From: Candidatus Omnitrophota bacterium
GTDB lineage: Bacteria > Omnitrophota > Gorgyraeia > Pluralincolimonadales > Pluralincolimonadaceae
DNA length: 64,000 bases
Assembly (NCBI GenBank): GCA_028716565.1
Contig: JAQUPL010000001.1
Location: 147,545-211,544, forward strand
Direction: 5' to 3'
The translations under genes and the position numbers were made by a program. Position 1 is the stretch's first letter. Each line of letters opens with the position of its first letter. Below, one piece after another: positions 29,545 through 51,855 of this stretch. The notes beneath the pieces are model-generated. The model did not search any database. It was not told where the DNA came from and was given only the letters and a program-made list of their open reading frames with translations.

Positions 29545-29561
29545 AATATAGATGGTAGAAT
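29534..29561 (+). promoter_or_regulatory. candidate promoter for metY leader (TTGACA-16-TAGAAT)
   Basis: TTGACA 29534-29539 (overlapping the upstream stop codon), TAGAAT 29556-29561. Confidence 0.4.
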
Positions 29562-29644
29562 TATACAAAATGATAAAGCGGCGATTTGAGGCGTATTGCT
29601 CCGCTTAATAAATGTGCTAAAAAGCAAACAAAGATTATTTGAGG

Positions 29645-29675
29645 CCCGTGCTTTTTAGCGCGGGTTTTTTGTTTT
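29645..29675 (+). terminator. intrinsic terminator/attenuator within metY leader
   Basis: CCCGTGCT-TTTT-AGCGCGGG hairpin followed by TTTTTTGTTTT, 45 nt upstream of the metY start. Confidence 0.6.
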
Positions 29676-29677
29676 AA

Positions 29678-31018
<1,341 letters not shown>

Positions 31019-31025
31019 GGTTAAA

Positions 31026-32156
31026 ATGACAGTCGAGAACAGCGTAGGCACAGTAAAAATAAAATACTTCACTTTCGCGGAACCCCCGCGCGAACTGAAA
31101 CTGGAGTCCGGCCAGGCCCTCGGCCCCATCACTTTGGCTTATGAGACCTATGGCACCCTGAACAGCCGGAAGAGCAACGCGATACTGATAGAGCACGCTC
31201 TCTCAGGCGACGCGCATGCCGCGGGTTTCCACGAAGGGGATAAGGACCCGGGCTGGTGGGATTCTATGATAGGTCCGGGCAAGGCCTTTGATACAACGAA
31301 ATATTTCGTGATCTGTTCCAATGTCATCGGCGGATGCAAGGGGAGCACAGGCCCTTCTTCGGTCAACCCGAAGACGGGGAAGCCCTACGCGCTGGAATTC
31401 CCGCTGATAACGATATCCGATATGGTCCATGCCCAGAGCCATTTGATAGGCCATCTCGGCATAGACAAGCTGCTTTGCGTGGTAGGCGGCTCGATGGGCG
31501 GGATGCAGACACTCCAATGGGTCGCGTCTTACCCTGACAGGGTGCGCTCTGCCATACCCATTGCTTCGGCGCTGAAACATTCCCCGCAGCAGATAGCTTT
31601 TAACGAGGTCGGAAGGCAGGCGGTAATGGCTGACCCGGAGTGGAGGGAAGGGGACTATTACGGGCACGGCCAACCCGAGAGGGGCCTGGCAGTCGCGCGC
31701 ATGGTCGGCCACATAACTTACATGAGCGACCAGTCGATGGAAGAGAAGTTCTCGCGCCGGCTTAAAGAGAAGAATTACAGCTTTACGTTCAAGACCGATT
31801 TCGAGGTAGAGGGTTATTTGAGATACAAGGGCGACGCCTTCGTGAAACGCTTTGACGCCAATTCATATCTCTATATAACCAAGGCCCTCGATTATTTCGA
31901 TCTTTCTGACGGTAAGCTTATACGCCAGGGTAAGGCCGTAGATACCCGCTTCCTGGTCATTGCCTTTAAGTCGGACTGGCTCTACCCGTCTTACCAGCTG
32001 CAGGATATCGTGCGCCAGCTTAAGACGAGGCATGTCGACGCCACGTATTGCGAGGTCAAGTCGACTTACGGGCACGACGCGTTCCTTCTCGAGGTTGAGG
32101 AGGAGACGCATTTGATCAGGCACTTTCTTAAAAAAGTATACAAGGAAGGCGAATAA
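31026..32156 (+). CDS. metX: homoserine O-acetyltransferase
   Basis: 376 aa, alpha/beta hydrolase. GGSMGGMQ nucleophile elbow. Typical MetX length and metW neighbour. Confidence 0.9.
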
Positions 32157-32161
32157 AATAA

Positions 32162-32755
32162 ATGGCTGAAGAAATAAAGAGACCGGACTATAAGATAATA
32201 TACGGGATCGTCGAACCCGGCTCGAGGGTATTGGACCTCGGCTGCGGCGAAGGGGACCTCCTTTGTCTCCTCTCGAAGGGAAAGGGGATAAAGGCGCAGG
32301 GGATAGAGTTGAGCGAAGACGCCATCTATAAATGCGTGGAGAAGGGATTAAGCGTATTCCACGGTGATATAGACAGCGGGCTCACCGAGTATCCGGATAA
32401 ATCTTTCGACTATGTGATACTCAACCAGAGCATGCAGGAGGTTAGGAAGGTAGATTTCGTGATAAACGAGGCGCTGAGGGTGGGAAGGAACGTAATAGTA
32501 GGATTTCCCAACTTTGCCTACTGGAGGGCAAGGTTCCGGCTTTTCCTAAAAGGCAAGACGCCGGTTACCCCCTCGTTGCCATACAGGTGGTATAATACCC
32601 CTAACCTGCATTTCCTGAGCATAAGCGACTTTAAGGAGTTCTGCGCGGAAAAGGGGATCTCTATCATCAGCGAGCATTATCTGGCGAAGGGCGGGGCGGC
32701 CGATTTTTTCCCCAATCTTTTCGCCTTAAACGCCGTATTCGTGATAACCAAGTAG
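32162..32755 (+). CDS. metW: methionine biosynthesis protein MetW
   Basis: 197 aa. SAM-MTase-like VLDLGCGEGDLL. Canonical metX-metW pairing. Confidence 0.8.
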   Translation: MAEEIKRPDYKIIYGIVEPGSRVLDLGCGEGDLLCLLSKGKGIKAQGIELSEDAIYKCVEKGLSVFHGDIDSGLTEYPDKSFDYVILNQSMQEVRKVDFVINEALRVGRNVIVGFPNFAYWRARFRLFLKGKTPVTPSLPYRWYNTPNLHFLSISDFKEFCAEKGISIISEHYLAKGGAADFFPNLFALNAVFVITK

Positions 32756-32775
32756 AAAAAAGAAAGGAGGGGGGC

Positions 32776-33498
32776 ATGAAAAAGATACTTATCATAATTG
32801 CCGCAGTCCTCGTTGTCTTATTTCTCGCGAAAGACTTTATCGCCGGTTCGCTTTTGACCTTAGGGGTAAGTTCCTTTACTGACCTTTCAGCTAGCGTACA
32901 ACACCTCAGCTTAGGCGTTTTCAAGAGCGCGGTCGATGTAAAAGGGTTTAAATTATACAATCCGCCGAAAGATTTCAGGGACAGGGTCATGGTGGATATG
33001 CCGGGTGTTTATATCAGCTACTATCCCGGCTCATTTCTGACCGGCACCAAACATCTCAAAGAAGTAAAACTCAATATCAAGGAGTTTGTGGTCGTAAAGA
33101 ACGCGAACGGCAAGCTGAATCTCGATTGCTTAAAACCTATACAGGCGCAGACGGACCGAAAGAGAGGGGACAAGAACCGGGATAAGAAGTTTAAGATCGA
33201 CGTCCTGGAGCTAAAGATAGACAAGGTCATATATAAAGATTATTCCCGGCCTGGCGAACCGGTGGTGAAAGAGTTCAATATAGGGGTTAATGAGCGTTAC
33301 GCCAATATAACCGACCCGTATTCTTTCGCTTCTTTGGTCGTCTTCAAGGCCCTGGCCAATACCAGCATCGCGTCTCTCGCCCATTTTGACCTTAGCCCGT
33401 TGAAGAGCGCCGCCTCGGATGCGCTCGTTAACGCGACGAAGAATGCGGTCGGCGCGGCGAGCGAAGCAGTAAAGAAACTGTTGCCTTTCGGTAAATAA
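32776..33498 (+). CDS. hypothetical exported/membrane-anchored protein
   Basis: 240 aa. N-terminal signal/anchor. RBS GGAGGGGGG. Confidence 0.4.
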   Translation: MKKILIIIAAVLVVLFLAKDFIAGSLLTLGVSSFTDLSASVQHLSLGVFKSAVDVKGFKLYNPPKDFRDRVMVDMPGVYISYYPGSFLTGTKHLKEVKLNIKEFVVVKNANGKLNLDCLKPIQAQTDRKRGDKNRDKKFKIDVLELKIDKVIYKDYSRPGEPVVKEFNIGVNERYANITDPYSFASLVVFKALANTSIASLAHFDLSPLKSAASDALVNATKNAVGAASEAVKKLLPFGK

Positions 33499-33503
33499 GA
33501 AAT

Positions 33504-33540
33504 AGAGGGAAGATAAGCCCTCTCATGAGATTTTTGTTTT
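33504..33540 (+). terminator. probable intrinsic terminator
   Basis: AGAGGG-loop-CCCTCT hairpin then TTTTTGTTTT. Confidence 0.4.
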
Positions 33541-33576
33541 GACACTTAATTTGTAAAGAGTTATAATAAGTTTGTC

Positions 33577-34359
33577 ATGAGAGTCGGTAAAACCCCTATT
33601 TGTTCGCAAATCAAGGAGCAAACGGCATTAAGTATAACAGCTTATTGTGCCTTGCTCCTTTTTGTTTTGAGCCAATCCGCTTATGCGCAGGACGGGGACG
33701 TCATATTGTGGGACGGGCTTGAAAGTAACAACAATTGGAGCATGAACACCGGCGGCAAAATGGCCGTTACCGCCGACCACAAGACAGAGGGGAACAGCAG
33801 CCTGGCGGTGAACGTTAACGGAGAGATCCCCGCGAGCGGCGTCATCATCAGGAAGACGAACGCCAATCTTAATGTTTCTTTCGCGAACCAGGTGATCCTG
33901 GATATCTATAACAGCGGAGACCCCTGTAAGATAGCGCTCGCTTTCGAGACAGGCAATTACCACGAAAGCGTTCCCAAGACCCTCAAAAGCGGGCTGAACA
34001 AGAATGTCACATTCGAGATCAGCTCAAGAGATTTCAAGGCCCCGTTTGATTATGTCACTACGGCAAATAACGTGATGTTCGTAGTGTATCCCGGCGACGG
34101 TTCGGTAGACCCGGTTTATCTCGATAATATCCGCGTAAAAAAATACGGCGGGCTCACATCGGTGCCTCCCGGGATTTCGCCCGCTATACAAGTTGCCGAG
34201 GCAGAAGAAACGGCTGTCGAAGCGGCCCCGGAATACACAGGCGCTTACAGCATATTAAACGGTTCGGTGCCCAACGAGAATACGGTGCCGGAACACAAGA
34301 CCGCCGTCATATTCGGCCTGGGCCTCGCCGGTCTCCTTTTTTATCGAAAAAAATCCTAA
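33577..34359 (+). CDS. secreted beta-sandwich (CBM-like) protein with PEP-CTERM-like C-terminal anchor
   Basis: 260 aa. Signal peptide; C-terminus VPEHKTAVIFGLGLAGLLFYRKKS (PEP-like motif + TM + basic tail). Domain paralogous to 36762 and 37387 (YLDNIRVKK vs YVDDIMF / YLDDLELVK). Promoter TTGACA-17-TATAAT directly upstream. Confidence 0.45.
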   Translation: MRVGKTPICSQIKEQTALSITAYCALLLFVLSQSAYAQDGDVILWDGLESNNNWSMNTGGKMAVTADHKTEGNSSLAVNVNGEIPASGVIIRKTNANLNVSFANQVILDIYNSGDPCKIALAFETGNYHESVPKTLKSGLNKNVTFEISSRDFKAPFDYVTTANNVMFVVYPGDGSVDPVYLDNIRVKKYGGLTSVPPGISPAIQVAEAEETAVEAAPEYTGAYSILNGSVPNENTVPEHKTAVIFGLGLAGLLFYRKKS

Positions 34360-34370
34360 AAACCCGCCCA

Positions 34371-35078
34371 TTGCGGTATAATATGCGCATGCTTAGATCA
34401 TTTTTTATTACGCTGGTTTTGCTTTTCCTGTTTTATTTTTCCCGAGTTTCCGCGGCTCCGGCATACGGCACCGATACCCCGGACAAAGGAAAGATCTCGA
34501 TAGGATATCAAGCCAACCTTGTATTTAAACACAGCTTAAACGACTCCCACGGCAGGATCAGGAGCTACCAGCATTTTGTCGACCTGTCTTACGGTGTATT
34601 AGACTGGTTCGCGTTCGACGGCAAGCTTGGCGTCGGCGACGTCAGGCAGAGCGGGGGAGACAGGCCGGAGATCAATTACGGGACCGGTTTCGCCGGAGGA
34701 TACGGGTTCAGGATCCTCCTCTGGAACAAGCCCTCGTATAAGGCCAGGGCCACTTTCGGCTTACATCATATAAGCGTCCATCCCACGGATGAGAATGTCG
34801 GCGGTAATTTGTACGAGACTTTCCTCGATGATTGGCAGCTCGACCTCCTCGCGTCCAAGAAATTCGGGAAGTTCGAGCCGTTCGTCGGCGGGAAAGCGTC
34901 ACTGTTCGACCAGGGCTATCGCGTAAACCACGGCGACAGGAAAAGGATGCACCCGAGATATTACGGCGGCGTGATAGCCGGCTTCGGGTTCGACCTCAGG
35001 GAGGACTTGACCCTGAAGGTAGAAGGCCATTTCATAGACGAAGATTCGCTGAGCGCCGGCCTTTATTATAAATACTGA
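34371..35078 (+). CDS. putative outer-membrane beta-barrel protein
   Basis: 235 aa. Signal peptide, alternating amphipathic strands, C-terminal aromatic YYKY. Confidence 0.4.
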   Translation: MRYNMRMLRSFFITLVLLFLFYFSRVSAAPAYGTDTPDKGKISIGYQANLVFKHSLNDSHGRIRSYQHFVDLSYGVLDWFAFDGKLGVGDVRQSGGDRPEINYGTGFAGGYGFRILLWNKPSYKARATFGLHHISVHPTDENVGGNLYETFLDDWQLDLLASKKFGKFEPFVGGKASLFDQGYRVNHGDRKRMHPRYYGGVIAGFGFDLREDLTLKVEGHFIDEDSLSAGLYYKY

Positions 35079-35095
35079 AAGAAGGGAAAAAGGAT

Positions 35096-35590
35096 ATGGA
35101 TATCTTTGAAGCGTTCAAAAGCAGGATAAGCGTCAGGGAATACAGCGATAAACCCGTTGAAAAAGAGAAATTGGAGAAGATGGTAGATGCCGGCCGCCTG
35201 GCCCCGACCGCGAGGGGCGAACAGCCGTGGGAATTTGTAATCGTAACCAACAAGGAAAAGGTAAAGGAACTCGCGGATATCACCGACCACGGCAAATTCA
35301 TGTCCGGGGCATCGGCGGCTATAGTCACGTTCTGCAAGGACACCAAGTATTACCTTGAGGACGGATGCGGCGCTACCGAAAACATCCTTCTCGCCGCCGC
35401 CGCCCAGGGAATAGCATCCTGCTGGATAGCCGGGGATAAGAAAGACTACGGGACAGAGATCGCGAAAGCCCTCAATGTCCCTGCAGATTTTAAATTGATA
35501 AGCATCATCTCGCTCGGATACCCTAAAGAAAAACCTCAACCTCACCAGAAGCGTCCGCTGAAAGAAGTCATGCACTGGGAGAAATTTTAA
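35096..35590 (+). CDS. nitroreductase family protein
   Basis: 164 aa. ISVREYSDKPV...RLAPTARGEQPWEFVIV nitroreductase N-terminal signature. Confidence 0.8.
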   Translation: MDIFEAFKSRISVREYSDKPVEKEKLEKMVDAGRLAPTARGEQPWEFVIVTNKEKVKELADITDHGKFMSGASAAIVTFCKDTKYYLEDGCGATENILLAAAAQGIASCWIAGDKKDYGTEIAKALNVPADFKLISIISLGYPKEKPQPHQKRPLKEVMHWEKF

Positions 35591-35611
35591 AAAACCCGTA
35601 AGGAGGCCGCG

Positions 35612-35845
35612 ATGAAAAAGGTAAAAATCTACAGCACGCCCACCTGCCCGCATTGCATAAGGGCCAAAAAATTCCTGGAAGAAAATAATGTCCCGTTTGA
35701 GAATTTTGACGTCGGCGCGGACCAGCAGAAATCCGAGGAGATGGTCAAGCTCTCCGGCCAGATGGGCGTCCCGGTCCTGGACATCGAGGGCAAGATAATA
35801 GTCGGCTTCGATAAAGAAGAAATAAAAAAAGAATTGGGGATATGA
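35612..35845 (+). CDS. glutaredoxin-like small redox protein (thioredoxin fold, CPHC)
   Basis: 77 aa. KIYSTPTCPHCIRAKKFL active site. Confidence 0.75.
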   Translation: MKKVKIYSTPTCPHCIRAKKFLEENNVPFENFDVGADQQKSEEMVKLSGQMGVPVLDIEGKIIVGFDKEEIKKELGI

Positions 35846-36747
35846 GCGTCTATGACCTTATAATCATAGGCGCGGGCCCGGCGGGCATCACCGCGGCCGT
35901 TTACGCGGCGCGCAAAAAGATGAGCATCCTGGTCATAAGCCCTGATATCGGCGGCCAGGCCGCCTGGAGCGGCGACATCGAGAATTATACCGGCTACCAG
36001 TTCATAAGCGGGCCTGACCTTGCCTCGAAATTCGAAGAGCATATGCGCAAGTATAACATCGCGCTCAAGGAAGGTGAGATGGCCATCGACCTTAAAAAAC
36101 TGGTGGATACATCGTTGGTAAAGACCGACAAGGGCGAGTACAGGGCCAAGGCCGTAATAGTCGCTTCCGGCAAGAAGTCCCGCGAACTGAGGGTGCCGGG
36201 AGAGAAGGAGTTCAAGAACAGGGGGCTGACCTATTGCGCCACCTGCGACGGCCCGTTATTTTCCGGGAAGGATGTGGCCATTATCGGAGGCGGAAACTCA
36301 GCCCTTGACGCCGCCCTGCAAATGGTAAAGATAGCGAAAAAAATATACGTCATAAATAATACTCCGCGGCTCGGGGGAGACCCTGTGATGCGCGAAAAGG
36401 TCGAAAAAGACCCTATCGTCACGGTCTTTAACGAGAGCCGCGTAACCGCTGTTTTGGGCGACAAATTTGTAAATGCCGTAAAGATAGCTGTCAGCGGCGA
36501 GGAACGCACCGTAAGCGTCCAGGGGATCTTTGTAGAGATAGGCCTGATCCCAAACACCGATTTCGCCAAAGACCTGGCCAAGAACGAGGTTGGCGAGATC
36601 AAGGTCAATAGCCGCAACGAGACGAACATCCAGGGCATCTTTGCTGCAGGCGACGTCACCGACGTCCCGGAGAAGCAGATAATCATTGCCGCAGGTGAGG
36701 GCTCCAAGGCCTGCCTGAGCGCGTTCAGGTATTTGTCGGAACACTGA
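35842..36747 (+). CDS. trxB: thioredoxin-disulfide reductase-like flavoprotein
   Basis: 301 aa. FAD motif IIGAGPAG, redox-active YCATCDG, NAD(P) motif IIGGGNSA. Confidence 0.85.
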   Translation: MSVYDLIIIGAGPAGITAAVYAARKKMSILVISPDIGGQAAWSGDIENYTGYQFISGPDLASKFEEHMRKYNIALKEGEMAIDLKKLVDTSLVKTDKGEYRAKAVIVASGKKSRELRVPGEKEFKNRGLTYCATCDGPLFSGKDVAIIGGGNSALDAALQMVKIAKKIYVINNTPRLGGDPVMREKVEKDPIVTVFNESRVTAVLGDKFVNAVKIAVSGEERTVSVQGIFVEIGLIPNTDFAKDLAKNEVGEIKVNSRNETNIQGIFAAGDVTDVPEKQIIIAAGEGSKACLSAFRYLSEH

Positions 36748-36761
36748 GGAGGAATGAACCT

Positions 36762-37373
36762 ATGAAAGTTATTGCTTTATCCGTTCTTTTATTGTGTGTG
36801 CTTGTGATGCCCTGCAGGGCGGCGCTTGCCGCGGACCTTATGGTTGCAAGTTTTGAGAATAACGGCCGCACCGACATCGGCACCGACATCGGCACGTGGG
36901 ATTACAATCCTGCCGACCCTAATCAGAGCTGTTCCATTGAGGTAGTACCCATGAAGGACGTATTGGGCAAAGCAGGGGTCGAGACCCATGTCCTGAAGAT
37001 ATCATATAGCGTGGCGTCGTCTATGCCGGCGTTCAACGGCATCTATATCAAGCTCAACAACGCGGACCTCAGTTCTTACGACGAGATGAGCATGCTGATC
37101 AAAGGCGACAACGAAAGGGGATTTACGACCCAATTCAAGGTCGAGATGAAAAATAACAAGGGCGAGCGCGTGGTATACCTTGTCAAAGACATAACCCTCG
37201 GCTGGCAAAAGATAGTAATACCGATGCAGGAACTAAAGGCGCTTGGCTCGATATCCGATTGGTCGAAGATGAAAGAGCTCGTCTTCACGTTCGACGACAT
37301 AACCGCGGATGTCAGGAAGGGCGCCATTTACGTTGACGATATAATGTTCTCGGAGAAAGAACAATCCCAATAG
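36762..37373 (+). CDS. secreted CBM-like beta-sandwich protein (paralog family)
   Basis: 203 aa. Signal peptide. Shares WQKI.IP...DW..I.E.VF.F......G..Y.DD pattern with 37387 and 33577. Confidence 0.45.
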   Translation: MKVIALSVLLLCVLVMPCRAALAADLMVASFENNGRTDIGTDIGTWDYNPADPNQSCSIEVVPMKDVLGKAGVETHVLKISYSVASSMPAFNGIYIKLNNADLSSYDEMSMLIKGDNERGFTTQFKVEMKNNKGERVVYLVKDITLGWQKIVIPMQELKALGSISDWSKMKELVFTFDDITADVRKGAIYVDDIMFSEKEQSQ

Positions 37374-37386
37374 GAAGGGGACAAAG

Positions 37387-38079
37387 ATGCGCTCGAAGAA
37401 GATAATCCTATTATTACTTTTGGCGGCGGGGCTTTTGATGCCGGGCCCTGTCTTTTGCGAAGAGATGCAGGTCAGTGTCCTCAAGATAGATGATTTCGAC
37501 GGCAAAGTGATGTTCAATTTGCTGGGCGGTAAGACGCAGGGCTATGAGGAAGCCGGGATCAAGTGCATACCGTCGTTTACCGATGACCCCAAAGAAAGGT
37601 ACGGCGACAAAGGCGCGTCGCTCAAGCTTGATTTTGACGTGACCAAGAGAGGGAGTTTCGCTTTTTACTGGACTATGCTGACCGTCAAGAAGAATATCGA
37701 AGTCGAAGGCAGGAATGTCGAGGTAATATCATTTGCGGCCCTGCGCGGCCACGATTTCCTGGAATTCCAATTCAAGGACCCGAAGGGGGGAGCCGACTTC
37801 ACGATAGAGGTGCATGAGGATGCCGACAGCGACGGCGTGTATATGATGGGGGTAGACAGGTCATCTATGGTGAATGCCGATCCGTATATTGACAGGACCG
37901 CCGCCGGAAAATGGCAGAAGATATCGATACCGCTTATCAAATTTGCGAACATCAAGGACTGGGACCGCATCCTTGAGATAGTCTTCGTCTTCAAGAGCGG
38001 ATACGGGATACCCAAGGGGACGGTTTATCTGGACGACCTGGAATTGGTAAAATATCCGAAGGAAGAGCCTTCGCAATAG
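37387..38079 (+). CDS. secreted CBM-like beta-sandwich protein (paralog family)
   Basis: 230 aa. Signal peptide. Paralog of 36762. Confidence 0.45.
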   Translation: MRSKKIILLLLLAAGLLMPGPVFCEEMQVSVLKIDDFDGKVMFNLLGGKTQGYEEAGIKCIPSFTDDPKERYGDKGASLKLDFDVTKRGSFAFYWTMLTVKKNIEVEGRNVEVISFAALRGHDFLEFQFKDPKGGADFTIEVHEDADSDGVYMMGVDRSSMVNADPYIDRTAAGKWQKISIPLIKFANIKDWDRILEIVFVFKSGYGIPKGTVYLDDLELVKYPKEEPSQ

Positions 38080-38101
38080 GGCCCCGGAGATCTCAAAAGG
38101 A

Positions 38102-38632
38102 GTGGAGATGAAAAAAACACTTTTTATTCTTGTTTTAAGCGTCGCCTTGTTTTCTCAGGTTGCCGGCATCAACGCGGAAGAACAAAGGACTTACATGAGC
38201 CCTTATTTCAATTTCGCGATAAATTATCCTTCTTCCTGGCAAGCCAGGGAATTAAGCGGTATGGTATTCTTTTTGTCTCCGCGCGAGGGTAACTCGGACG
38301 GTTTTACAGAAAACGTCGGTGTCACTATCGAAGACCTGGCTAAGAATCCGATGAGTTTGGATGAGTATGAGACGATTTCGCTTAAGAATGCCCCAAGCAT
38401 AATACCGGCTTTTAAATTGATAGAAAAGAACAACGCTAAAATAGACGGCAAGAATGCTTATTTTATGGTTTATACTGGCAGCGCACAGACTAGAAGCCTT
38501 AAATATAAGTCATACACGTTTATCACGGATTCAAAGGCGTTCACCTTGACTTATTCAGCCGAAAAGAAGAATTATGATAAATACCTGAAACGGGCTGAAC
38601 TCATAATGAGATCCATTAAAATAACGCATTAA
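38102..38632 (+). CDS. hypothetical exported protein
   Basis: 176 aa. Signal peptide, no motif. RBS GGAGTGGAG. Confidence 0.4.
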   Translation: MEMKKTLFILVLSVALFSQVAGINAEEQRTYMSPYFNFAINYPSSWQARELSGMVFFLSPREGNSDGFTENVGVTIEDLAKNPMSLDEYETISLKNAPSIIPAFKLIEKNNAKIDGKNAYFMVYTGSAQTRSLKYKSYTFITDSKAFTLTYSAEKKNYDKYLKRAELIMRSIKITH

Positions 38633-38678
38633 TATAGGGGACGCGTCAAAAGGGGAAGGTCAGGAAAGGGGATAAGGC

Positions 38679-39167
38679 GTGATAAAGAGATGCAAAAAAT
38701 GCAGGGTCCCGCTGGAAGGGTTTATGTATATATGGGTAGCGGCCAGGATCTTCAAGATCAAGCCCTCCGAAAAGGACCCGGAATTGTGTAATAAGTGCGA
38801 AGACATCACAAACATCCCGGTCCGGATCACAAGCGCATTTAGAGACCTGGTGGTATTGATCGTCGTCACCGTCATCGTATTGGTCATCTCGTATTTTTTT
38901 AGCGTATTCGAGTTTATCGTAAGCCTGTTCAATAAATATCCCCATTTGATAACTTATGTAGACGAGATCATAACATTCCTTTTGACCTTAAGCATCGGCT
39001 TCGCGATCTTCTCCTGGCGCAGATGGCGGGAAGTCAAAAAAGAGGCCGCTGAATGCATAAGACTGCAGGAAGAGCTTGTCAAGGCTGCCGATACAAAGGC
39101 GGAAACAGAGAAGATCATCAGCAAACAGCTTCACAGCGAGATCGAGCTGCGCAAGCAAAAGCGTTAA
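38679..39167 (+). CDS. hypothetical membrane protein with C-terminal coiled coil
   Basis: 162 aa. Two TM helices plus charged helix. True start uncertain. Confidence 0.35.
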   Translation: MIKRCKKCRVPLEGFMYIWVAARIFKIKPSEKDPELCNKCEDITNIPVRITSAFRDLVVLIVVTVIVLVISYFFSVFEFIVSLFNKYPHLITYVDEIITFLLTLSIGFAIFSWRRWREVKKEAAECIRLQEELVKAADTKAETEKIISKQLHSEIELRKQKR

Positions 39168-39180
39168 AATAATCATAGTG

Positions 39181-39237
39181 GCAAGGGAGGGCTGCAAGGC
39201 CTGCCTGAGCGCGTTCAGATACCTCTCCGAACACTGA
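39181..39237 (+). repeat. diverged duplicate of the last 57 nt of trxB (remnant, encodes ...AREGCKACLSAFRYLSEH-stop)
   Basis: 49 of 57 nt identical to 36691-36747 including the TGA at the same position. Several differences are synonymous (TATTTGTCG vs TACCTCTCC both YLS). Confidence 0.6.
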
Positions 39238-39251
39238 CTCGCCGTTTTCCC

Positions 39252-39280
39252 TTGACAAGGATATTTAAATAACATAGTAT
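39252..39280 (+). promoter_or_regulatory. candidate promoter (TTGACA-17-TAGTAT) upstream of hflK
   Basis: TTGACA 39252-39257, TAGTAT 39275-39280. Confidence 0.4.
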
Positions 39281-39354
39281 GAAACCATAAGACAATTAAT
39301 CGGGTCAGAAATATTAATTTATTTCTGAAGGAGAAGTCAATTTGGATGGTCGGG

Positions 39355-39392
39355 CCGCCATCTGTGAAAAAACAGATGGCGGTTTTTGTTTT
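39355..39392 (+). terminator. intrinsic terminator between the promoter above and hflK
   Basis: CCGCCATCTGT-GAAAAA-ACAGATGGCGG hairpin + TTTTTGTTTT. 30 nt upstream of the hflK ATG. Confidence 0.55.
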
Positions 39393-39424
39393 ATAAGGAT
39401 GAATTAAAACGGGAGGCGTAGATC

Positions 39425-40423
39425 ATGGACTGGCAGAACGTCCCTAATCCCGATGAGATAATCGGCATGGGAAGGAAAAGACTGGTTGATTTTTGGAAAT
39501 TTTTGCGATGGTTCATCGTGATATTCATCATTCTTATCGGCATAAAAGGGGTTGTTTACTCTATCGGCCCGGATGAGGTAGGCGTGATCCAGAGATTCGG
39601 CAAGTATATCGGCTTAAGCTCGCCCGGACTGCATGTAAAATTGCCTTTCGAGATAGACAAGGTGACCCCGGTTAAGGTGAAGAAGGTCTTTAAAGAGGAG
39701 TTCGGCTTTAGGACCGTAAAACCGGGAACAAGGACCGACTATAGAAGCGGAGGCAACAAAGACCAGTCCCTGATGCTTACCGGGGATTTGAATATCCTGG
39801 ACGTGCGCTGGATAATCCAATTCAAGATAAAAGACCCCGTTAAGCTGATCTTTGCCACCCGCAACCCTATGGATAACATCGACGATATTTCCGAAGTGGT
39901 GATGCGGCGTTTTGTCGGCGATTATACGGTCGACGAAGTGCTTACCACAAAGCGTGAGGAGATAGACGATCTCGCGCAGCAGGAGATCCAGAAGATCCTG
40001 GATAATTACAACGTGGGGGTCCAGATAGTCACGGTAAAACTGCTGGATGTTAATCCTCCCGAGAAGGTAAAACCGGCTTTCAACGAGGTAAACGAGGCAA
40101 AACAGGAAAAGGAAAAGATGATCAACCAGGCGTGGGAGGCCTACAACAAGGTCATCCCCAAGGCCAGGGGCCAGGCGGAGAAGACCATCCGCGAAGCGGA
40201 AGGTTACGCTACGGATAAGACAAACAGGGCAAAGGGCGAATCGGAACGGTTCCTGATAACATTAAAGGAATATAACAATGCCCCGGAGATAACCAGGAAG
40301 AGGCTATACTTAGAGACCTTAACGGAAGTCCTCCCTAAGGCAAGAGAAAAATATATAATTGATCCAGAGCAGAGGTCGATTCTTCCTATGCTCGACATGA
40401 AAAACAAGGAGGGCCAACGATAA
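39425..40423 (+). CDS. hflK: FtsH protease modulator HflK (SPFH/band-7)
   Basis: 332 aa. N-terminal TM, SPFH domain, HflK-type coiled-coil tail. Followed by hflC with overlapping stop/start (ATGA). Confidence 0.85.
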   Translation: MDWQNVPNPDEIIGMGRKRLVDFWKFLRWFIVIFIILIGIKGVVYSIGPDEVGVIQRFGKYIGLSSPGLHVKLPFEIDKVTPVKVKKVFKEEFGFRTVKPGTRTDYRSGGNKDQSLMLTGDLNILDVRWIIQFKIKDPVKLIFATRNPMDNIDDISEVVMRRFVGDYTVDEVLTTKREEIDDLAQQEIQKILDNYNVGVQIVTVKLLDVNPPEKVKPAFNEVNEAKQEKEKMINQAWEAYNKVIPKARGQAEKTIREAEGYATDKTNRAKGESERFLITLKEYNNAPEITRKRLYLETLTEVLPKAREKYIIDPEQRSILPMLDMKNKEGQR

Positions 40424-41379
40424 TGAAGAAACTGAGTTCCATTATCGCTTTATCTGTAGGAGTATTGGTCCTGGTGATCGCCGCTTTTGCCACCGGGGCT
40501 GTATATATTGTCGATGAAGTGCACCAGGTGGTGATCACGCAATTCGGCAAACCCATAGGAAACCCGATCACCTCCTCGGGGCTGCATCTTAAGAGGCCTT
40601 TTATCCAGACTGCCCATTATTTTGACAAGAGGCTGCTTGATTGGGACGGGGACCCGAACCAGATCCCGACCAGAGATAAGAAGTATATCTGGGTGGATAC
40701 GACCGCGCGATGGAGGATCGTGGATTCCCTGAAATTCCTGCAGTCGGTGGGTAATGAGATCGGCGCCCAGGGCAGGTTGGACGATATCATCAATTCTGCG
40801 ACCAGGGACGTGGTTACCAGCCATCTTTTGGTCGAGGCCGTAAGGGATTCAAACCGCATCCTGGAGACAAAGATCGAAGGAGAAGACCTGATAGTCACGG
40901 ATGAGGCGCTGGAAAGGATAAGTGTCGGCAGGGAACTGCTGGAGAAGGCTATCCTGGACAAGGCGAAGGTCCTCGCCCCGCAGTACGGCATAGAGATAGA
41001 CGATGTGCGCATTAAACGCATAAACTATGTCGAGGACGTGCGCAATAAGGTCTATGACCGCATGATCGCCGAGAGAAAACGCGCCGCCGAGAAATACCGC
41101 TCCGAAGGCCAGGGAAAATCCGCGGAGATCGAAGGGCAGGTGGCCAAAGAGTTAAAGGAGATCTCTTCGGAGGCATACAGGAAAGCCCAGCTTGTAATAG
41201 GTAAAGCCGATGCCGAAGCCGTCAGCATCTACGGCAAGGCCTACAGCCAGGATCCCGGTTTTTATTCATTTCTGAAGACGCTCGAGACGTATAAGGAGAC
41301 CATCGACGGGAATTCAACGGTGATCCTGACCACCGACAGCGATTATTATAAGTACCTTAAAACCCTTGACGAGAAGTAA
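40423..41379 (+). CDS. hflC: FtsH protease modulator HflC
   Basis: 318 aa. SPFH domain; canonical hflK-hflC pair. Confidence 0.85.
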   Translation: MKKLSSIIALSVGVLVLVIAAFATGAVYIVDEVHQVVITQFGKPIGNPITSSGLHLKRPFIQTAHYFDKRLLDWDGDPNQIPTRDKKYIWVDTTARWRIVDSLKFLQSVGNEIGAQGRLDDIINSATRDVVTSHLLVEAVRDSNRILETKIEGEDLIVTDEALERISVGRELLEKAILDKAKVLAPQYGIEIDDVRIKRINYVEDVRNKVYDRMIAERKRAAEKYRSEGQGKSAEIEGQVAKELKEISSEAYRKAQLVIGKADAEAVSIYGKAYSQDPGFYSFLKTLETYKETIDGNSTVILTTDSDYYKYLKTLDEK

Positions 41380-41428
41380 CATCCAGTCCCGAAGGAAGAC
41401 TAATCCTTTCCATAGGAATAGGCACGCA

Positions 41429-41488
41429 ATCACAACCCTCTGCAATTATAATAGTTGCAGAGGGTTTTTGTTTGGAGTAGAATAAATC
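41429..41488 (+). repeat. about 58-bp terminator-like repeat element, copy 1 (also the hflC terminator)
   Basis: ATCACAACCCTCTGCAATTATAATAGTTGCAGAGGGTTTTTGTTTGGAGTAGAATAAA. Hairpin CCCTCTGCAA/TTGCAGAGGG + T-run. About 86% identical to 48578-48636. Confidence 0.7.
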
Positions 41489-41622
41489 CTGACGGAGTGT
41501 CCCAAAGTGACACGTCCCCAAAATCCCGCAATAGCAGAAAATTAAGCAAAAAAGCAAATATTTCCTCTTGTAATAATGTCAATTAATGGTACATTAGAGT
41601 ATCTTCGATACGTGACGATAAT

Positions 41623-42195
41623 ATGAAAAAATCAACTATTATAATAATCGCGATCCTGCTAACGTTCCCTGCGGCGGCAAGCGCCAATCTGCTGGTCAAC
41701 CCGGGATTTGAGACGGGTAATTTCAGCGGATGGGCTCCTTACGCTTTCGGCTCTGAGAATGTATCAAGCGCAAACCCTTACACGGGCCAGTATGAGGCAA
41801 GAATAACTAACTACGGATGGATAACCCAAACCGTCAATTTAACGCCGAATGCCACCTACAAGCTGTCTTCATACCTGTATATGCCGCAAGACGGCGGTGA
41901 CGCGTCGATCTCCATAACTTTTTATAACTCTACCGGCACGACTTCCTTCCAGCAGGAGCGTTCCTGGCAGCGGATCCCGGGAGACCAGCAATACGATAAG
42001 ATAGAAACGGACTGGCTGGTTGCCCCCAGTTATACCGCTTATGCCAAAGTGCGCTGCTCAGTCGCTTCAGCCGGCAGCTATATTGACTTCGATGACGTCA
42101 GCTTGGATGTTGTGCCGGAACCGAGCTCGCTGGTTCTTCTGTTTACCGGCCTTACAGGATTATTCGGTTTACTGACCCGCCCCAAAGGTGTATGA
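41623..42195 (+). CDS. PEP-CTERM sorting-signal protein with CBM-like N-terminal domain
   Basis: 190 aa. Signal peptide. C-terminus VVPEPSSLVLLFTGLTGLFGLLTRPKG is a classic PEP-CTERM (PEP, TM, basic tail). Confidence 0.6.
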   Translation: MKKSTIIIIAILLTFPAAASANLLVNPGFETGNFSGWAPYAFGSENVSSANPYTGQYEARITNYGWITQTVNLTPNATYKLSSYLYMPQDGGDASISITFYNSTGTTSFQQERSWQRIPGDQQYDKIETDWLVAPSYTAYAKVRCSVASAGSYIDFDDVSLDVVPEPSSLVLLFTGLTGLFGLLTRPKGV

Positions 42196-42228
42196 TATTC
42201 CCGTACTCCAATTAACTGGAGGAAGGGG

Positions 42229-42468
42229 ATGCCTTTTCTGCTGATTTTATTATTGGTTCCTTTAGTCATCTTAATAGCCGGCTTAATATTATTCATTAAG
42301 CCGGCTTCTTGCATTAAATGGCAGATTAAATTCTACAGCAAGATCAACTGGCGAATGGAACCCATCAATATGGAAATGGAGATCAGGAATACGAAGATCA
42401 TGGGATTATTCCTGATTGGCGCGGCTATAGCAACGGTCATCTATCCATTAATTAGGGGAAATAAATGA
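42229..42468 (+). CDS. small hypothetical membrane protein
   Basis: 79 aa, two TM helices. Stop overlaps the next start. Confidence 0.3.
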   Translation: MPFLLILLLVPLVILIAGLILFIKPASCIKWQIKFYSKINWRMEPINMEMEIRNTKIMGLFLIGAAIATVIYPLIRGNK

Positions 42469-44759
42469 AAAAGATCATTTTGATAACGTTAATTTTATTA
42501 TTTTCATTTACAGGCCCTTTGATTCCTGCAAAGGAAGAGAATCTCGCTGATTCTACGCCTCCTTCCGCACCCGTAATCAATACTGATAAGAGAACAAAAT
42601 CACTAGATATGATCGTTGCGCACTGGAAAAGCGAAGACCCTGAATCAGGGATAGCCGAGTATCAGTACGCAATAGGGACGGTCCCGGAAGGCACCGATGT
42701 TCTATACTGGACCTCAAACGGGCCGAACGAAGATTGTTATGTCTATCAGGTAAGATTGGAGAAAAATAAAAATTACTATATCTCTGTGGTCGCAAAAAAT
42801 AAAGCGGGCTTAAAAAGCAAAGTAGCCACAGCCGGTCCGATAAAAGCTGCAAAAGAAGTATATATATCGGTTGAATGGCCAAGGTTTAATTCAATTATAA
42901 GGAATAATGAAACAAGGATAAGTGGCACTGCCGAAGGTGTTGATACTGTAAATATTAACGGCAGGGAATTCGCAGTTAATGATGACGAGTCATTTAAAGG
43001 CCCGACTTTAGTAGCACCCGGTTATGCCGCAAGAAAAGGGATCGATGCAAAAGACCCGAATTATATTATTATGAATTTTCCCGGGAAGACAGATATTAAA
43101 GTATCCGCCGAAGGAGAGGAATCGTTTACAACGTGTTACTATTATCAAGCTTATTTGAAGAGTTCTACAACTTCGGAGAGTTATGCTTATTCTGATGAGT
43201 TCCAATCCTGGAATATGGATGCCTTGGCAAAATCACCGTTTGCCGATTGGAAAGACTATCAATATCCATCAAGGATCAGGACTAAGAAAAATATGTCGGA
43301 AGCCTGGACGCCCTGGCAATATTGCGATTACTACTTTAAGTGGTGGAGATATTATCATAGCGCAATATCATATCCCGGGAAACCGGGCAGATGCACTTCC
43401 TCAATGACGATTCATACACTACCGGCCAAAAAAGGAGAGATTGAGCCGATGATATTGCTATTCCAAGAGTGCATGATATCACCTTATGACTTTAAAGGAA
43501 GGCGTCCTGATATTTCAGAATATAAGATGAATGGCAGACAATTGAAGTGGTTTTACGGTGATGCAAATAAATTGCCCAACTGCGCTTATATCATCCTGGA
43601 TAAGTATGTTCCGGATACCGATATCGAGCTTAAGGTCGAAGCTCCTGTTTTGAAGACCGATACTAAAGGGAATCCAACCGAATTACAGACATTTGCGTGC
43701 CGGTTCATAGATGTATTTGAAATGGAACTCGTACGCGAAACCCCGTTTAACAGCGGAAATTATAGCGTTGTGCAGACTATACCGATTTTCACCCCGGATA
43801 CAGGAGAAGGGCGAGGGTTGCCTTTGGGCGTGATTAACATGCCTTTTTTAAAGCTTAACCTTGATAAGGAATTATCTGATTCGCAGGTTGACCACTTAAA
43901 TGCTGAATTGAGAATAGCTGACAAAGTCACGAAATATACCTTAACGGAAACGTCACCCAATTCGCAGGTGTTTACGGACGAATCTAAGGACTTCGTTATC
44001 AAATTTGAGCCTTTAGTAAAAACTAGCCCAAGCGAACAAGATGATATTGTATGTTTTTTAACCTCAAAGAAAAATAACATAAATGACCAGGTTTTCAATC
44101 TTAGAGAAACCGCCTCGGATTCACTATGTTTTGAGGACGTAAAAGTGTTCATTACGGTCTGGTTTAAAGGAGAATTAAGCGACCAGCAAAAAGATATGAT
44201 GACAATCCAATTCACGAAAGGCATGATGGCTGGCGACCAGGAGCTTACGGAAACGGGCGAAAACTCGTTGGAATTTACGAACAAAGACGGCGATCTTACG
44301 GTGCGGCTTAACAACTATAAGGGTAAATTTAGTGGTGCGCTTGATGTGACTGCCCCGAACAAGGGCTATATGGACCTAAAAAGCCCAAGGCTTATTCTTG
44401 AGAGAGTCGACCCATCAAAATACTGTTTTACAAATGAAAATTTCGGCAACGGCACTAATGTTACCCAAGAAGATCCCGGAATATCCGGCGAGGGTATATT
44501 CAGGGCCAGGATAAGAGGATTGCACGATCTCAATAAATATTCTTTAAATCGGCTGGTAATCGTGATTACAGTTGATGGAGTTTCAAAGAGTTTAAAATTA
44601 ACAAAACACACGGATGGATCGTACATTACCGGAAATCTGCTATTAGTTCTGAAAGATCAAAAGGGGGAAAGGGACTATAAAGGAGTAACCGTATTCCACA
44701 CAGATGGCAAAAAGGGTGTAGGGGCTATTTCAACAAAATTTATGGAAGTAAACGAATAA
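42465..44759 (+). CDS. large secreted protein of unknown function (N-terminal FN3/Ig-like module)
   Basis: 764 aa. Signal peptide, then PSAPVINTD...WKSEDPESGIAEYQYAIGT...module. Remainder has no recognisable motif. Confidence 0.5.
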   Translation: MKKIILITLILLFSFTGPLIPAKEENLADSTPPSAPVINTDKRTKSLDMIVAHWKSEDPESGIAEYQYAIGTVPEGTDVLYWTSNGPNEDCYVYQVRLEKNKNYYISVVAKNKAGLKSKVATAGPIKAAKEVYISVEWPRFNSIIRNNETRISGTAEGVDTVNINGREFAVNDDESFKGPTLVAPGYAARKGIDAKDPNYIIMNFPGKTDIKVSAEGEESFTTCYYYQAYLKSSTTSESYAYSDEFQSWNMDALAKSPFADWKDYQYPSRIRTKKNMSEAWTPWQYCDYYFKWWRYYHSAISYPGKPGRCTSSMTIHTLPAKKGEIEPMILLFQECMISPYDFKGRRPDISEYKMNGRQLKWFYGDANKLPNCAYIILDKYVPDTDIELKVEAPVLKTDTKGNPTELQTFACRFIDVFEMELVRETPFNSGNYSVVQTIPIFTPDTGEGRGLPLGVINMPFLKLNLDKELSDSQVDHLNAELRIADKVTKYTLTETSPNSQVFTDESKDFVIKFEPLVKTSPSEQDDIVCFLTSKKNNINDQVFNLRETASDSLCFEDVKVFITVWFKGELSDQQKDMMTIQFTKGMMAGDQELTETGENSLEFTNKDGDLTVRLNNYKGKFSGALDVTAPNKGYMDLKSPRLILERVDPSKYCFTNENFGNGTNVTQEDPGISGEGIFRARIRGLHDLNKYSLNRLVIVITVDGVSKSLKLTKHTDGSYITGNLLLVLKDQKGERDYKGVTVFHTDGKKGVGAISTKFMEVNE

Positions 44760-44858
44760 AGTCTAATAAGCCAAAGTCTGATTTCATATGCCCGCGCAGA
44801 GAAGACATACGACAAGTCGATCGATAATTACCTGCGTAACAGAAAAAGATAGAATAAT

Positions 44859-45362
44859 ATGAAAATATTAAAGATACTTCTATTTTTAGTTTTAATGTTT
44901 ATTGGGGTTTATTTCTTAATAATCAGTATCGAGGGTTTTATACCCATTTTGACCAGGCATGTTGATACAAATGGAAATGATTTAATTATACTGCTGACGA
45001 TTTGTACTTTTTTCGCGGCAATGTGTCTGATAGGTTCTATTGGAAAATTATTCTTCAGAAAATGGGCCCGCTTCCTAGTAATTGTTGATGTCGCGTTTAA
45101 TATCGCGATTGCATTTTTTCTTTCCGGATTTACTGTAATAATTCAAACTGGAGTGGATACTGCCTACAGCGATTCTGTCGGCATCATTAGATACTGGGGT
45201 TTTCCAATTCATTATTGTTCGAAGGCTCCTGGTTTAGCTTGGGCTGAGTATGATCCTATGCGGTTTTTATTGAATTCATTTGTTTGGTTCATCTTTCTTA
45301 TGGCGTTTTGGTTTTATCGGAGAAAAATAGGACAGAAATCTAAAGAAGCAAGGCCTGAATGA
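44859..45362 (+). CDS. hypothetical polytopic membrane protein
   Basis: 167 aa, 4 predicted TM helices. Confidence 0.4.
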   Translation: MKILKILLFLVLMFIGVYFLIISIEGFIPILTRHVDTNGNDLIILLTICTFFAAMCLIGSIGKLFFRKWARFLVIVDVAFNIAIAFFLSGFTVIIQTGVDTAYSDSVGIIRYWGFPIHYCSKAPGLAWAEYDPMRFLLNSFVWFIFLMAFWFYRRKIGQKSKEARPE

Positions 45363-45688
45363 GGATCTGGGATATAGCGCCAAGAAAATTATGCCGCAAC
45401 CATCTCCTGGGCGAGCACAGGGAACTTCACGCCATCTGGTCTGTCCTGACACGCAAAAAGAAAGGGTATTCCCGTCATCCGGAGACCTTAAGGTGGAAGG
45501 GCAGGTTAAAGGCGCTGTATTCAAGGCACAATAAGCTCATAGCGGAGTTTAAAAGGCGGGGTTACAGGCATTACAGCCCTCTTGATTCGAGGCTGGCAAT
45601 AGGGAAGGGGAGGCAAACGCAATTCGTCAATTCGGTCAGTGAACAGGCTCAAATTTTAGGAAGGAAACACTGCGGCTGTAAGATATAA
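45359..45688 (+). CDS. pyrimidine-dimer DNA glycosylase-like protein (T4 endonuclease V / Pyr_excise family, short form)
   Basis: 109 aa. RNHLLGEHRELHAIWSV aligns with T4 endoV ADQHLMAEYRELPRVFG (catalytic Glu region). Confidence 0.5.
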   Translation: MRIWDIAPRKLCRNHLLGEHRELHAIWSVLTRKKKGYSRHPETLRWKGRLKALYSRHNKLIAEFKRRGYRHYSPLDSRLAIGKGRQTQFVNSVSEQAQILGRKHCGCKI

Positions 45689-45704
45689 AAGGGGACAGTT
45701 CATA

Positions 45705-47384: not shown

Positions 47385-47421
47385 AAAGTAAGGTAAATAG
47401 AGGTCGCGTCGAAAGGTAGCA

Positions 47422-48077
47422 ATGAAAAAGGTAATCACCTACGTAGCGCTCACATTCCTTCTTAGCTCCGCCGGCTATTACCTGATAATCAATAGTAAAG
47501 CTTTAGGCCTGAGCCCGGCTTTGCTGATGTTATACCTTATGTGGTGTCCCGGGATCTCGGGCATGGCCACCTCGCTCATATATGAAAAGAGCCTCTCCGG
47601 CATCGGCTGGAAACCGGGCAAACTGCGCTGGCTGGGATTGGGGTATCTCCTGCCTATCTGCTACGCGGCCGCCGCTTATGGGATCATCTGGCTCTCCGGC
47701 TTCGGTGGCGTCAACCATGATTACCGTATTAACGCGTTTATACTCATCGTGTTGGGCCCGGCAATAAGCGTGGTGTATGCGGCAGGGGAGGAGATAGGCT
47801 GGCGCGGGTCACGATAACCGCGATGACCTTCGCTATCGGATGGCTAAGGCTGAAATCAGGCAGTGTCTGGCCGGCGATCCTGATGCACGCAAGCCATAAC
47901 TTTTACATCCAGTGGTTATTCGACCCGCTTACGACCGAAACAGGCCCGATGTCCAACTATATGATCGGCGAATCCGGTATCGTTTTAACAGTGATTTTTA
48001 TCGGGCTGGCGTTGGTTTTTTGGAGTCAAAGAGGGCGGCTTCCGAACTTCGAAAATAGAACCGGAGTTGTGCAATAA
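47422..48077 (+). pseudogene. CPBP (CAAX/Abi-type) intramembrane metalloprotease, frameshifted
   Basis: Motif 1 EEIGWRG at the end of ORF 47422-47817, then a stop. Motif 3 HASHN appears in the next ORF (47823-48077) in a different frame. Confidence 0.5.
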
Positions 48078-48102
48078 ACGTGAAAGGAATCTTGATTAGA
48101 AA

Positions 48103-48528: not shown

Positions 48529-48577
48529 TTGGTACCACCCTAATTTTGTGCGTTGAAAGAACAGGGGTCATAAAATA

Positions 48578-51853: not shown

Positions 51854-51855
51854 TC

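Follow-up and report, generated by a model that had tools for sequence, protein, structure and literature searches.

A diverged trxB 3′ end at the edge of a lineage-specific hflKC block in an uncultured Omnitrophota bacterium

The trxB repeat and the block that carries it

The DNA analysed here, hereafter the window, is a stretch of 64,000 nucleotides (nt) from the metagenome-assembled genome of an uncultured Omnitrophota bacterium (assembly GCA_028716565.1, contig JAQUPL010000001.1, positions 147,545 to 211,544). It contains an intact trxB-like gene and, 2.4 kb further downstream and ahead of the genes hflK and hflC (together hflKC), a diverged copy of the last 69 nt of that gene, which we call the remnant. 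Comparison with relatives places the remnant at the left end of a 2.3-kb block that carries hflKC and is found in the window lineage only. The locus comprises the following features.

35842–36747, + strand: intact trxB-like gene for a 301-amino-acid (aa) FAD disulfide reductase of the TrxR/AhpF-C family with a CATC motif (Pfam Pyr_redox_2, 1.8e-42)
36679–36747, + strand: copy 1 of the repeat, formed by the functional 3′ end (TGA included) of the resident trxB-like gene; 67/69 identical to the ortholog end in the relative L161
36762–37373, + strand: exported protein, weakly CBM-like (Pfam)
37387–38079, + strand: exported protein, weakly CBM-like, paralog of the preceding one (Pfam)
38102–38632, + strand: PsbP-like exported protein (Pfam)
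38679–39167, + strand: membrane protein of 162 aa with an N-terminal CxxC...CxxC, transmembrane (TM) helices and a coiled coil
39169–39237, + strand: copy 2 of the repeat, the trxB 3′-end remnant, a scar without function with which the lineage-specific block starts on the left; delimited by the repeat and the presence/absence boundary
39425–40423, + strand: hflK (NCBIfam TIGR01933, 275 bits against a cut-off of 159)
40423–41379, + strand: hflC (NCBIfam TIGR01932, 255 bits against a cut-off of 134)
41428–41485, + strand: terminator hairpin element closing the block (stem 41434–41466 plus a T-run)
41474–41815, + strand: right flank, made up of the promoter region and about 190 nt of the 5′ coding part of the PEP-CTERM gene; putative homologous anchor and crossover zone
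41623–42195, + strand: gene for a PEP-CTERM CBM_4_9 protein (Pfam), the conserved right border of a variable interval

A repeat search and alignment agree on a direct repeat of 69 nt (36679–36747 and 39169–39237; 58/69 identical, 84%; spacing 2490), by far the longest direct repeat reported in 34000–42000. A preliminary description of this DNA had noticed 57 nt of it and claimed a duplicated trxB end; the duplication is confirmed, and the synonymous differences quoted there (TAT TTG TCG against TAC CTC TCC) are correct. Both copies end on the same TGA and similarity ceases right after it. They have in common an exact 23-mer, AAGGCCTGCCTGAGCGCGTTCAG, present twice in the window; 100 dinucleotide-preserving shuffles gave 0 occurrences with up to 3 mismatches allowed. 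Translated in frame, the remnant reads IIIVAREGCKACLSAFRYLSEH and the gene IIIAAGEGSKACLSAFRYLSEH, each followed by the stop.

The preliminary description had proposed to check whether the remnant is in frame with anything expressed. It is offset, beginning one base past the TAA of the membrane-protein gene and in another frame, and the 53-aa open reading frame (ORF) that contains it (39076–39237, with a TTG start inside another frame of the membrane-protein gene) has no family match. The same arrangement of membrane-protein gene, remnant and hflK was also assembled in a second metagenome-assembled genome, L172 (GCA_028714115.1), and in the Logan assemblies L173 and L174, all of the same population at 99.6–100% identity. 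An assembly artefact is therefore not the source of the repeat structure. At position 39179 the base in L172 and L174 is C, not T, giving GCG (Ala) in place of GTG (Val). Thus the GTG of the window postdates the event and is still polymorphic, and this Val/Ala variation among strains points to the lack of coding constraint on the remnant. The remnant is without function of its own; in annotation it should neither be called a gene nor be read as evidence of an integrated element.

Relatives were drawn from 80 loci around TrxB homologs in species-representative genomes, 80 loci around HflK homologs in metagenomes (L081–L160) and 15 more gene contexts obtained by exact-protein look-up. Each collection scan covers the best 80 loci only, and all relatives compared are metagenome assemblies. 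In L161 (GCA_041653595.1) positions 1–9445 correspond to window 29255–38660 at 93.0% nt identity and positions 9981–10485 to window 38659–39163, the membrane-protein gene, at 93.3%; homology then returns at 41496 by BLAST or at 41474 by alignment. The order in L161 is trxB, three exported-protein genes, a peroxiredoxin gene, the membrane-protein gene, about 135 nt and the PEP-CTERM gene. In L002 (TrxB 88% identical) and two P0254 contigs (89%) it is trxB, three exported-protein genes and the PEP-CTERM gene. Both the remnant and hflKC are absent at this site in L161, L002 and the two P0254 contigs. The lineage-specific unit runs from the first base of the remnant to the end of the hflC terminator (39169–41473, 2305 nt). 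This block is confined to the window lineage; L161, a close relative, and L002 and P0254, which are more distant, have its neighbours but not the block. Since the presence/absence boundary lies at the left edge of the remnant, the remnant is part of the right-hand hflKC block and not of the left-hand genes. One gain of the block would be more parsimonious than at least two independent losses, each ending exactly at the edge of the trxB homology.

The preliminary description took the remnant as the mark of an insertion junction, and in this it was right: the first base of the remnant is the left boundary of the window-only block. It also took the 2.4 kb between the repeats (36748–39180) as the inserted element, and this is not supported, as L161, L002 and the two P0254 contigs keep its first three genes right after an intact trxB. 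These three exported-protein genes (36762–38632) are colinear and directly 3′ of trxB in L161 (95.5% nt identity), L002 (82%) and the two P0254 contigs, which have no remnant, and on this distribution they can be regarded as vertically shared cargo and not as an insertion. The membrane-protein gene likewise appears to be resident in the window lineage; its ortholog P0001 (92% identical) stands in the same place in L161 and is followed there directly by the PEP-CTERM gene.

The remnant differs from the resident end in the manner of another allele. The resident 69-nt end matches that of L161 at 67/69 positions; the remnant matches any known trxB end at 57–59/69 (57/69 for L161). Relative to the resident end, the ancestral form of the remnant found in L172 and L174 has 8 changed codons, and 6 of the 8 changes are purely synonymous (ATT>ATA, GCC>GCG, AGG>AGA, TAT>TAC, TTG>CTC, TCG>TCC). 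The alternative codons occur in living trxB genes, with ATA and TAC CTC TCC in L003, AGA in L001 and L002, and GCG in L002. The other two changes, G>R in AAGEG and S>C, fall at residues that are invariant or nearly so in the trxB ends of the clade. In the window's own remnant 7/11 differences are at third codon positions (p = 0.039). Taken together, this agrees with an allele that was functional during its divergence, with slight decay since, and not with neutral decay of a self-copy. Decay would have begun with the G to R and S to C changes, plus the still-polymorphic A to V. The suggestion in the preliminary description of a homologous but different trxB end as the source of the remnant is thus borne out by the synonymous changes and by the use of the same codons in the trxB of other lineages. 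Moreover, in a search of 5.8 billion proteins the nearest non-self HflK had 86% identity, as against 92–99% identity to L161 for most flanking genes. In GC content the block (0.489) is no different from the window as a whole (average 0.487), as expected if the donor came from the same clade.

At the left junction L161 reads ...GCGGTGA G AATA GGAGTA..., the window ...GCGTTAA A ATA ATCATAG... and trxB ...CAG ATA ATC AT.... The join is made at a microhomology of 3 nt, ATA (39169–39171), common to the recipient (L161 ...TGAGAATAGGAG...) and to trxB (...CAGATAATCAT...). On the right side L161 homology returns at GGAGTA (41474), directly after the terminator. Beyond this point the sites that are informative in a three-way comparison of the window, L161 and L002 are distributed unevenly, as follows.

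41571–41814: window-unique 18, L161-unique 3, L002-unique 8
35096–38632: window-unique 86, L161-unique 73, L002-unique 471
3′ part of the PEP-CTERM gene: window-unique 13, L161-unique 10, L002-unique 31

Compared with the left region, 41571–41814 has a significant excess of window-unique sites (Fisher p = 7.5e-9), and so it does compared with the 3′ part of the PEP-CTERM gene (p = 9e-4). Donor sequence seems to extend into the homologous flank up to about 41815–41860.

Gene exchange behind trxB and a second scar

Relatives with TrxB 77–94% identical carry at least 6 different cargo sets in the interval behind trxB, which reaches up to the PEP-CTERM CBM gene or to glpK. Downstream of trxB lie the following.

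L001, P0246 and P0252 (TrxB 91%): Ysc84 and choloylglycine hydrolase
L168 (TrxB 91%): two large unknown proteins, C11 peptidase and glpK-glpD
L171 (TrxB 84%) and L175 (80%): glpK directly
L004 (TrxB 77%): hydrolase, glpK-glpD and membrane protein, then the PEP-CTERM gene
L002 and P0254 (TrxB 88–89%): three exported-protein genes
L161 (TrxB 94%): three exported-protein genes, the peroxiredoxin gene and the TM gene

The PEP-CTERM gene is kept downstream of differing cargo in L002, L004, L161 and the P0254 contigs. In L165, whose HflK is the closest known to that of the window (86%), glpK-glpD, which in other genomes come after trxB, lie 1.5 kb downstream of hflKC. Therefore hflKC does occur in this kind of interval. 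Judged by these arrangements, the interval behind the glutaredoxin-trxB pair (grx-trxB) can be called a gene-exchange hotspot in this clade.

A sensitive tblastn search with the last 40 residues against about 171 loci and the window found scars only in the window and in L168. The second scar (L168:11858–11934, Ga0129287_10000035) comprises about 77 nt of a trxB 3′ end and encodes ...EKQIIIAAGEGSKACLSAFRYLSQQ (…RYLSQQ) up to the stop. It lies 3.9 kb downstream of the trxB of L168 itself, between the two large unknown genes and the C11 peptidase gene, at the left edge of that cargo gene. The match is 63/69 to the trxB end of L002 as against 51/69 to that of L168. On the left, a stretch of 46 nt from the 5′ end of a glpK gene is fused to it (composite 11812–11934), and the C11 peptidase gene follows the scar after 17 nt. 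It is an independent second case. It breaks off about 80 nt before the stop, and in this as in its junction partner it is unlike the window scar, which favours illegitimate joining and speaks against a site-specific attachment (att) core.

Origin of the scar

We consider it fairly probable that the remnant is the scar of a one-sided homologous recombination, known as homology-facilitated illegitimate recombination (HFIR), which imported the hflKC block from a related Omnitrophota donor. The donor genome would have had the order trxB, hflKC, PEP-CTERM gene in the same variable interval. A linear fragment of it, broken 69 nt before the donor trxB stop, would have paired through its right part with the homologous PEP-CTERM flank, with a crossover near 41815–41860, and its left end would have been joined illegitimately just behind the stop codon of the membrane-protein gene, at the ATA microhomology. 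The left join would be illegitimate because 69 nt of trxB do not suffice for homologous exchange; with more of trxB the fragment would recombine cleanly without a scar, which would be why only short stubs are seen. A donor block from the same syntenic interval would likewise explain why a stray piece of trxB lies in the neighbourhood of trxB itself. Import in this manner would jointly cover the position of the remnant at the extreme edge of the new block, its end at the stop codon and the lack of a recombinase.

Recombinases were searched for with Pfam, NCBIfam and PHROGs in the four bracketed ORFs and the 53-aa remnant ORF, and with Pfam in the nine ORFs of at least 110 aa to the right, from 42229 to 52944. 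Neither the bracketed region nor the scanned ORFs, about 7 kb left and about 13 kb right of the remnant, gave a match to an integrase, transposase or phage family. The preliminary description had reported no integrase in the bracketed DNA and had regarded it as an old, decayed insertion. The former holds, with none in 36748–39180 by Pfam and PHROGs and none out to 52944 by Pfam; as to the latter, integrase or recombinase traces in 36748–39180 were found by none of Pfam, NCBIfam and PHROGs. No tRNA lies near the scar, the only tRNAs of the window being at 8847 and 63611.

HFIR was reportedly described by de Vries and Wackernagel in 2002 in Acinetobacter, by Prudhomme et al. in 2002 in S. pneumoniae and by Meier and Wackernagel in 2003 in P. 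stutzeri, studies to which PMC5361080 refers. The process is also documented in E. coli (PMC3240628). In HFIR, as proposed here, one end lies in homologous sequence and the other is joined at a few bases of microhomology; there is no recombinase gene, there are no target-site rules, and the insert carries a stub of its former neighbour. The present locus accords with this in that the block is absent from L161 (93% backbone) and is more diverged than the backbone (remnant 57/69, HflK 86%), and in that one junction is at a short microhomology (ATA) in non-homologous DNA. It differs in that the evidence is read from natural genomes of an uncultured phylum, where it is experimental elsewhere, and in that the support for the homologous end is statistical.

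Several points weigh against import. A donor-type locus was not found: hflK is downstream of trxB in 0 of about 90 trxB loci (none within 8 kb), and among the 83 hflK loci outside the window population (the 80 metagenome loci plus L165–L167; best 80 per scan) none has trxB upstream and none of the 80 metagenome loci has the PEP-CTERM gene downstream. By the same counts, the ancestral order supposed in the preliminary description, trxB followed directly by hflK, is not borne out. Parsimony, applied to three relative lineages known from metagenome assemblies only, is what gives the event its direction. The divergence of the remnant, about 16%, does by itself just allow for a self-copy that arose near the split of the window and L161 and decayed neutrally, and at such divergence the codon pattern is the sole argument against that. 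Moreover, synonymous divergence (dS) between the window and L161 is patchy (0.07–0.35). At a locus that is mosaic in general, another exchange could have produced the window-unique tract in the PEP-CTERM gene. Lastly, import presumes DNA uptake by this uncultured Omnitrophota lineage, which we infer.

Exactly the observed structure would also result from displacement in the opposite sense. The lineage would once have had its own trxB allele followed by hflKC and the PEP-CTERM gene, and L161-like DNA (trxB, three exported-protein genes, membrane protein) would have paired within trxB and been joined illegitimately at its right end, 69 nt before the resident stop, so that the original 3′ end was pushed downstream. 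The remnant would again be a diverged, formerly coding allele, the mechanism is documented for effector-immunity arrays of type VI secretion systems (T6SS; PMC5361080), and the two middle cargo genes have the lowest dS to L161 (0.07–0.09), which could reflect recent exchange with that lineage. We nevertheless regard displacement as unlikely, if conceivable. With an L161-like backbone both left and right of the block, displacement needs two events, a loss of the cargo and then its regain, as against one. Moreover, the three-gene cargo is the older state in the clade by L002 and P0254, and no relative has trxB beside hflK. A step in window-L161 divergence, predicted by displacement for a left crossover, was looked for; the patchy dS shows no clear step and does not bear on the question either way. 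A copy of the resident trxB end made within the genome, for example by unequal crossing-over or by tandem duplication plus deletions, and left to neutral decay would suit the closeness of the two copies (2.4 kb apart, same strand), and their divergence of about 16% roughly fits neutral decay since the window/L161 split (trxB dS 0.27). It is improbable, given that 6/8 changed codons are synonymous and match functional genes of other lineages while the resident end is 67/69 to that of L161, that the similarity goes no further than the stop codon, as would be the case for two alleles whose downstream neighbours differ, and that the L168 scar is clearly of a foreign (L002-like) type. Nor would local duplication account for a copy welded to a lineage-specific hflKC unit. 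Least of all do we credit a chimera, in which the metagenome assembler joined two strains at a shared k-mer. The window is from a metagenome-assembled genome and the copies share a 23-mer, but the novel junction, between the stop of the membrane-protein gene and the remnant, is not at that 23-mer, and the arrangement was independently assembled in a second metagenome-assembled genome and in two Logan run assemblies at 99.6–100% identity.

The preliminary description read the locus as an element integrated into the trxB 3′ end. Of that reading a foreign trxB end at an insertion junction stands; the insertion is the hflKC block on the right, not the 2.4 kb on the left, and there is no integrative element. 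Islands and prophages in the 3′ end of a tRNA or protein gene, which duplicate the att site and bring along a substitute for the gene end, do produce the same picture of a direct repeat of the gene 3′ end with the stop in register and the copies diverged. If the trxB 3′ end were the attachment site of an integrase-driven island or of integron-like cassettes and the repeats were att sites, this would also suit the cargo genes bracketed by the repeats, the many alternative cargo sets behind trxB and the two independent scars. Such a site-specific system is very doubtful. There is no integrase or recombinase among the ORFs scanned in or near the bracketed DNA, what comes and goes among relatives is not the set of bracketed genes, and most cargo swaps are scarless. 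Moreover, the scar end points are not fixed and no crossover core is common to the independent events: the breakpoints lie 69 nt (window) and about 80 nt (L168) before the stop, and both junctions are microhomologies with unrelated partners, the stop of the membrane-protein gene in one and a glpK 5′ fragment in the other. An integrative element in the trxB 3′ end was rejected on these breakpoints and partners and on the lack of an empty site, that is, of trxB directly followed by hflK. That the interval behind grx-trxB is a dedicated cassette-exchange site, with the last 70–80 nt or so of trxB as substrate of an unlinked recombinase and the stubs as att-like footprints, seems to us a long shot.

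Among known systems, the effector-immunity modules of the Vibrio cholerae T6SS are subject to sequential displacement, for which HFIR was proposed as the mechanism (Kirchberger et al. 2017, PMC5361080). These modules and the orphan 3′ tips of Rhs and contact-dependent inhibition (CDI) toxin genes resemble the trxB interval in that a conserved gene is followed by a hotspot of exchangeable modules, with 3′ fragments left over between them; in T6SS arrays, too, most exchanges are clean homologous replacements and a minority leave scars. In those systems, however, the 3′ end of the conserved gene itself is a variable, selected toxin domain and the retained downstream gene is for immunity. Here the trxB C-terminus is conserved across the clade (IIIAAGEGSKACLSAFRYLS...), the cargo consists of unrelated housekeeping or envelope genes, and the neighbours of the scars, hflKC and C11 peptidase, are not immunity-like. 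Also, comparison with relatives puts the newer block to the right of the scar, so that the anchor would be on the other side. HFIR import of hflKC would be an instance of a known process, part of ordinary genome evolution, and no new kind of system. It would give a natural example, with a second one in a relative, of operons moving between genomes of an uncultured phylum without mobile-element machinery, in which the stub of a former neighbour carried by the imported block records the gene order of the donor.

The hflKC unit, its leader RNA and neighbouring genes

The genes hflK and hflC, for modulators of the FtsH protease, are adjacent with a one-base overlap. Nucleotide homology of the hflKC unit with relatives starts at 39287–39302. 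Three leader elements precede hflK.

39252–39280, + strand: sigma-70-like promoter, TTGACA-17-TAGTAT, 15 nt after the TGA of the remnant
39302–39363, + strand: nhaA-I (Li+-I class) riboswitch-like aptamer (Rfam RF03057, 38.2 bits against a gathering score of 37)
39352–39385, + strand: intrinsic terminator overlapping the aptamer

Visual inspection of L165 and L167 shows a promoter-like TTGACA...TAGAAT in the corresponding position ahead of hflK. In the window the aptamer scores above the gathering threshold and is followed by an expression platform, the terminator. A match to nhaA-I (RF03057) lies upstream of hflK in 15/15 other Omnitrophota loci tested (44–54 bits; L081, L083, L084, L086, L088, L095, L098, L106, L128, L140, L143, L158, L165, L166 and L167), and thus in 16/16 with the window. 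HflK/HflC, SPFH and Omnitrophota go without mention in the main text and the accessible supplements of the Li+ riboswitch paper (PMC9646797), as does HflK in the nhaA-I passages of the discovery paper (PMC5737381). The pairing of an nhaA-I leader with hflK may be a new gene association, in which an alkali-cation riboswitch would control FtsH modulators.

The hairpin that closes the block, with its conserved tail (…GGGTTTTTGTT.GGAGTA.AATAA), is one of a small family of repeated, terminator-like intergenic elements. Copies are found in the window at 41428–41485 and 48577–48634 (86% identity) and at L161:17431–17524, L004:14764–14813 and L141:635–680. The hairpin was considered as transposon ends and rejected: a search for exact or near-exact palindromes gave no further copies, BLAST gave one diverged copy at 48577, and the element looks like a common terminator. 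The window and strain L172, 99.6% identical, show 25 differences, and 20 of these fall in 370 nt of hflC (40683–41049), a clustering that points to a recent recombination tract within the population.

The membrane protein (38679–39167) belongs to a family of 124 homologs from Omnitrophota, which elsewhere stand in unrelated gene contexts. Its N-terminus is extended by about 45 residues that hold two CxxC pairs, zinc-ribbon-like, an extension found otherwise only in the 92% identical L161 ortholog; the other members, about 120, match only the C-terminal 70% or so of the protein. One source labels a homolog 'regulation of membrane protease activity'. The gene was considered as a usual partner of hflKC and rejected, with 0 homologs beside hflK in L081–L160 and the unrelated contexts of the family.

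The trxB-like protein is 94% identical (aa) to its L161 ortholog. It falls below the NCBIfam equivalog cut-offs for both TRX_reduct (TIGR01292; 289 bits against 343) and AhpF (C-terminal half; 320 against 503), and therefore 'trxB-like' is the safe name. Two genes lie ahead of it.

35096–35590: nitroreductase
35612–35845: YruB-type glutaredoxin-like gene (NCBIfam YruB match above cut-off)

The trxB-like gene is translationally coupled to the YruB-type glutaredoxin-like gene, and the nitroreductase gene precedes the pair. The trxB-like protein may be the reductase of the YruB-type glutaredoxin-like protein and not of a classical thioredoxin.

The peroxiredoxin gene of L161 (Redoxin/AhpC-TSA, 171 aa) lies between the PsbP-like and membrane-protein genes, in the segment L161:9446–9980, where the window has no gene (38633–38678). 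In L161 it is flanked by direct repeats of about 20 nt that resemble ribosome-binding sites (AGGT.A..A.GGGGATA.GGC), and the window has a single copy of the repeat. Its absence from the window is consistent with a deletion between the flanking repeats.

A second variable interval follows the PEP-CTERM gene, where window 42200–47380 is without a counterpart in L161 and L161 has an autotransporter gene. Further right in the window is a defence-like cluster (48103–52944), with a GIY-YIG protein (48103–48528), an OLD-family nuclease (AAA_15 + TOPRIM, 48727–50535) and a weak match to GmrSD_N (50666–51853).

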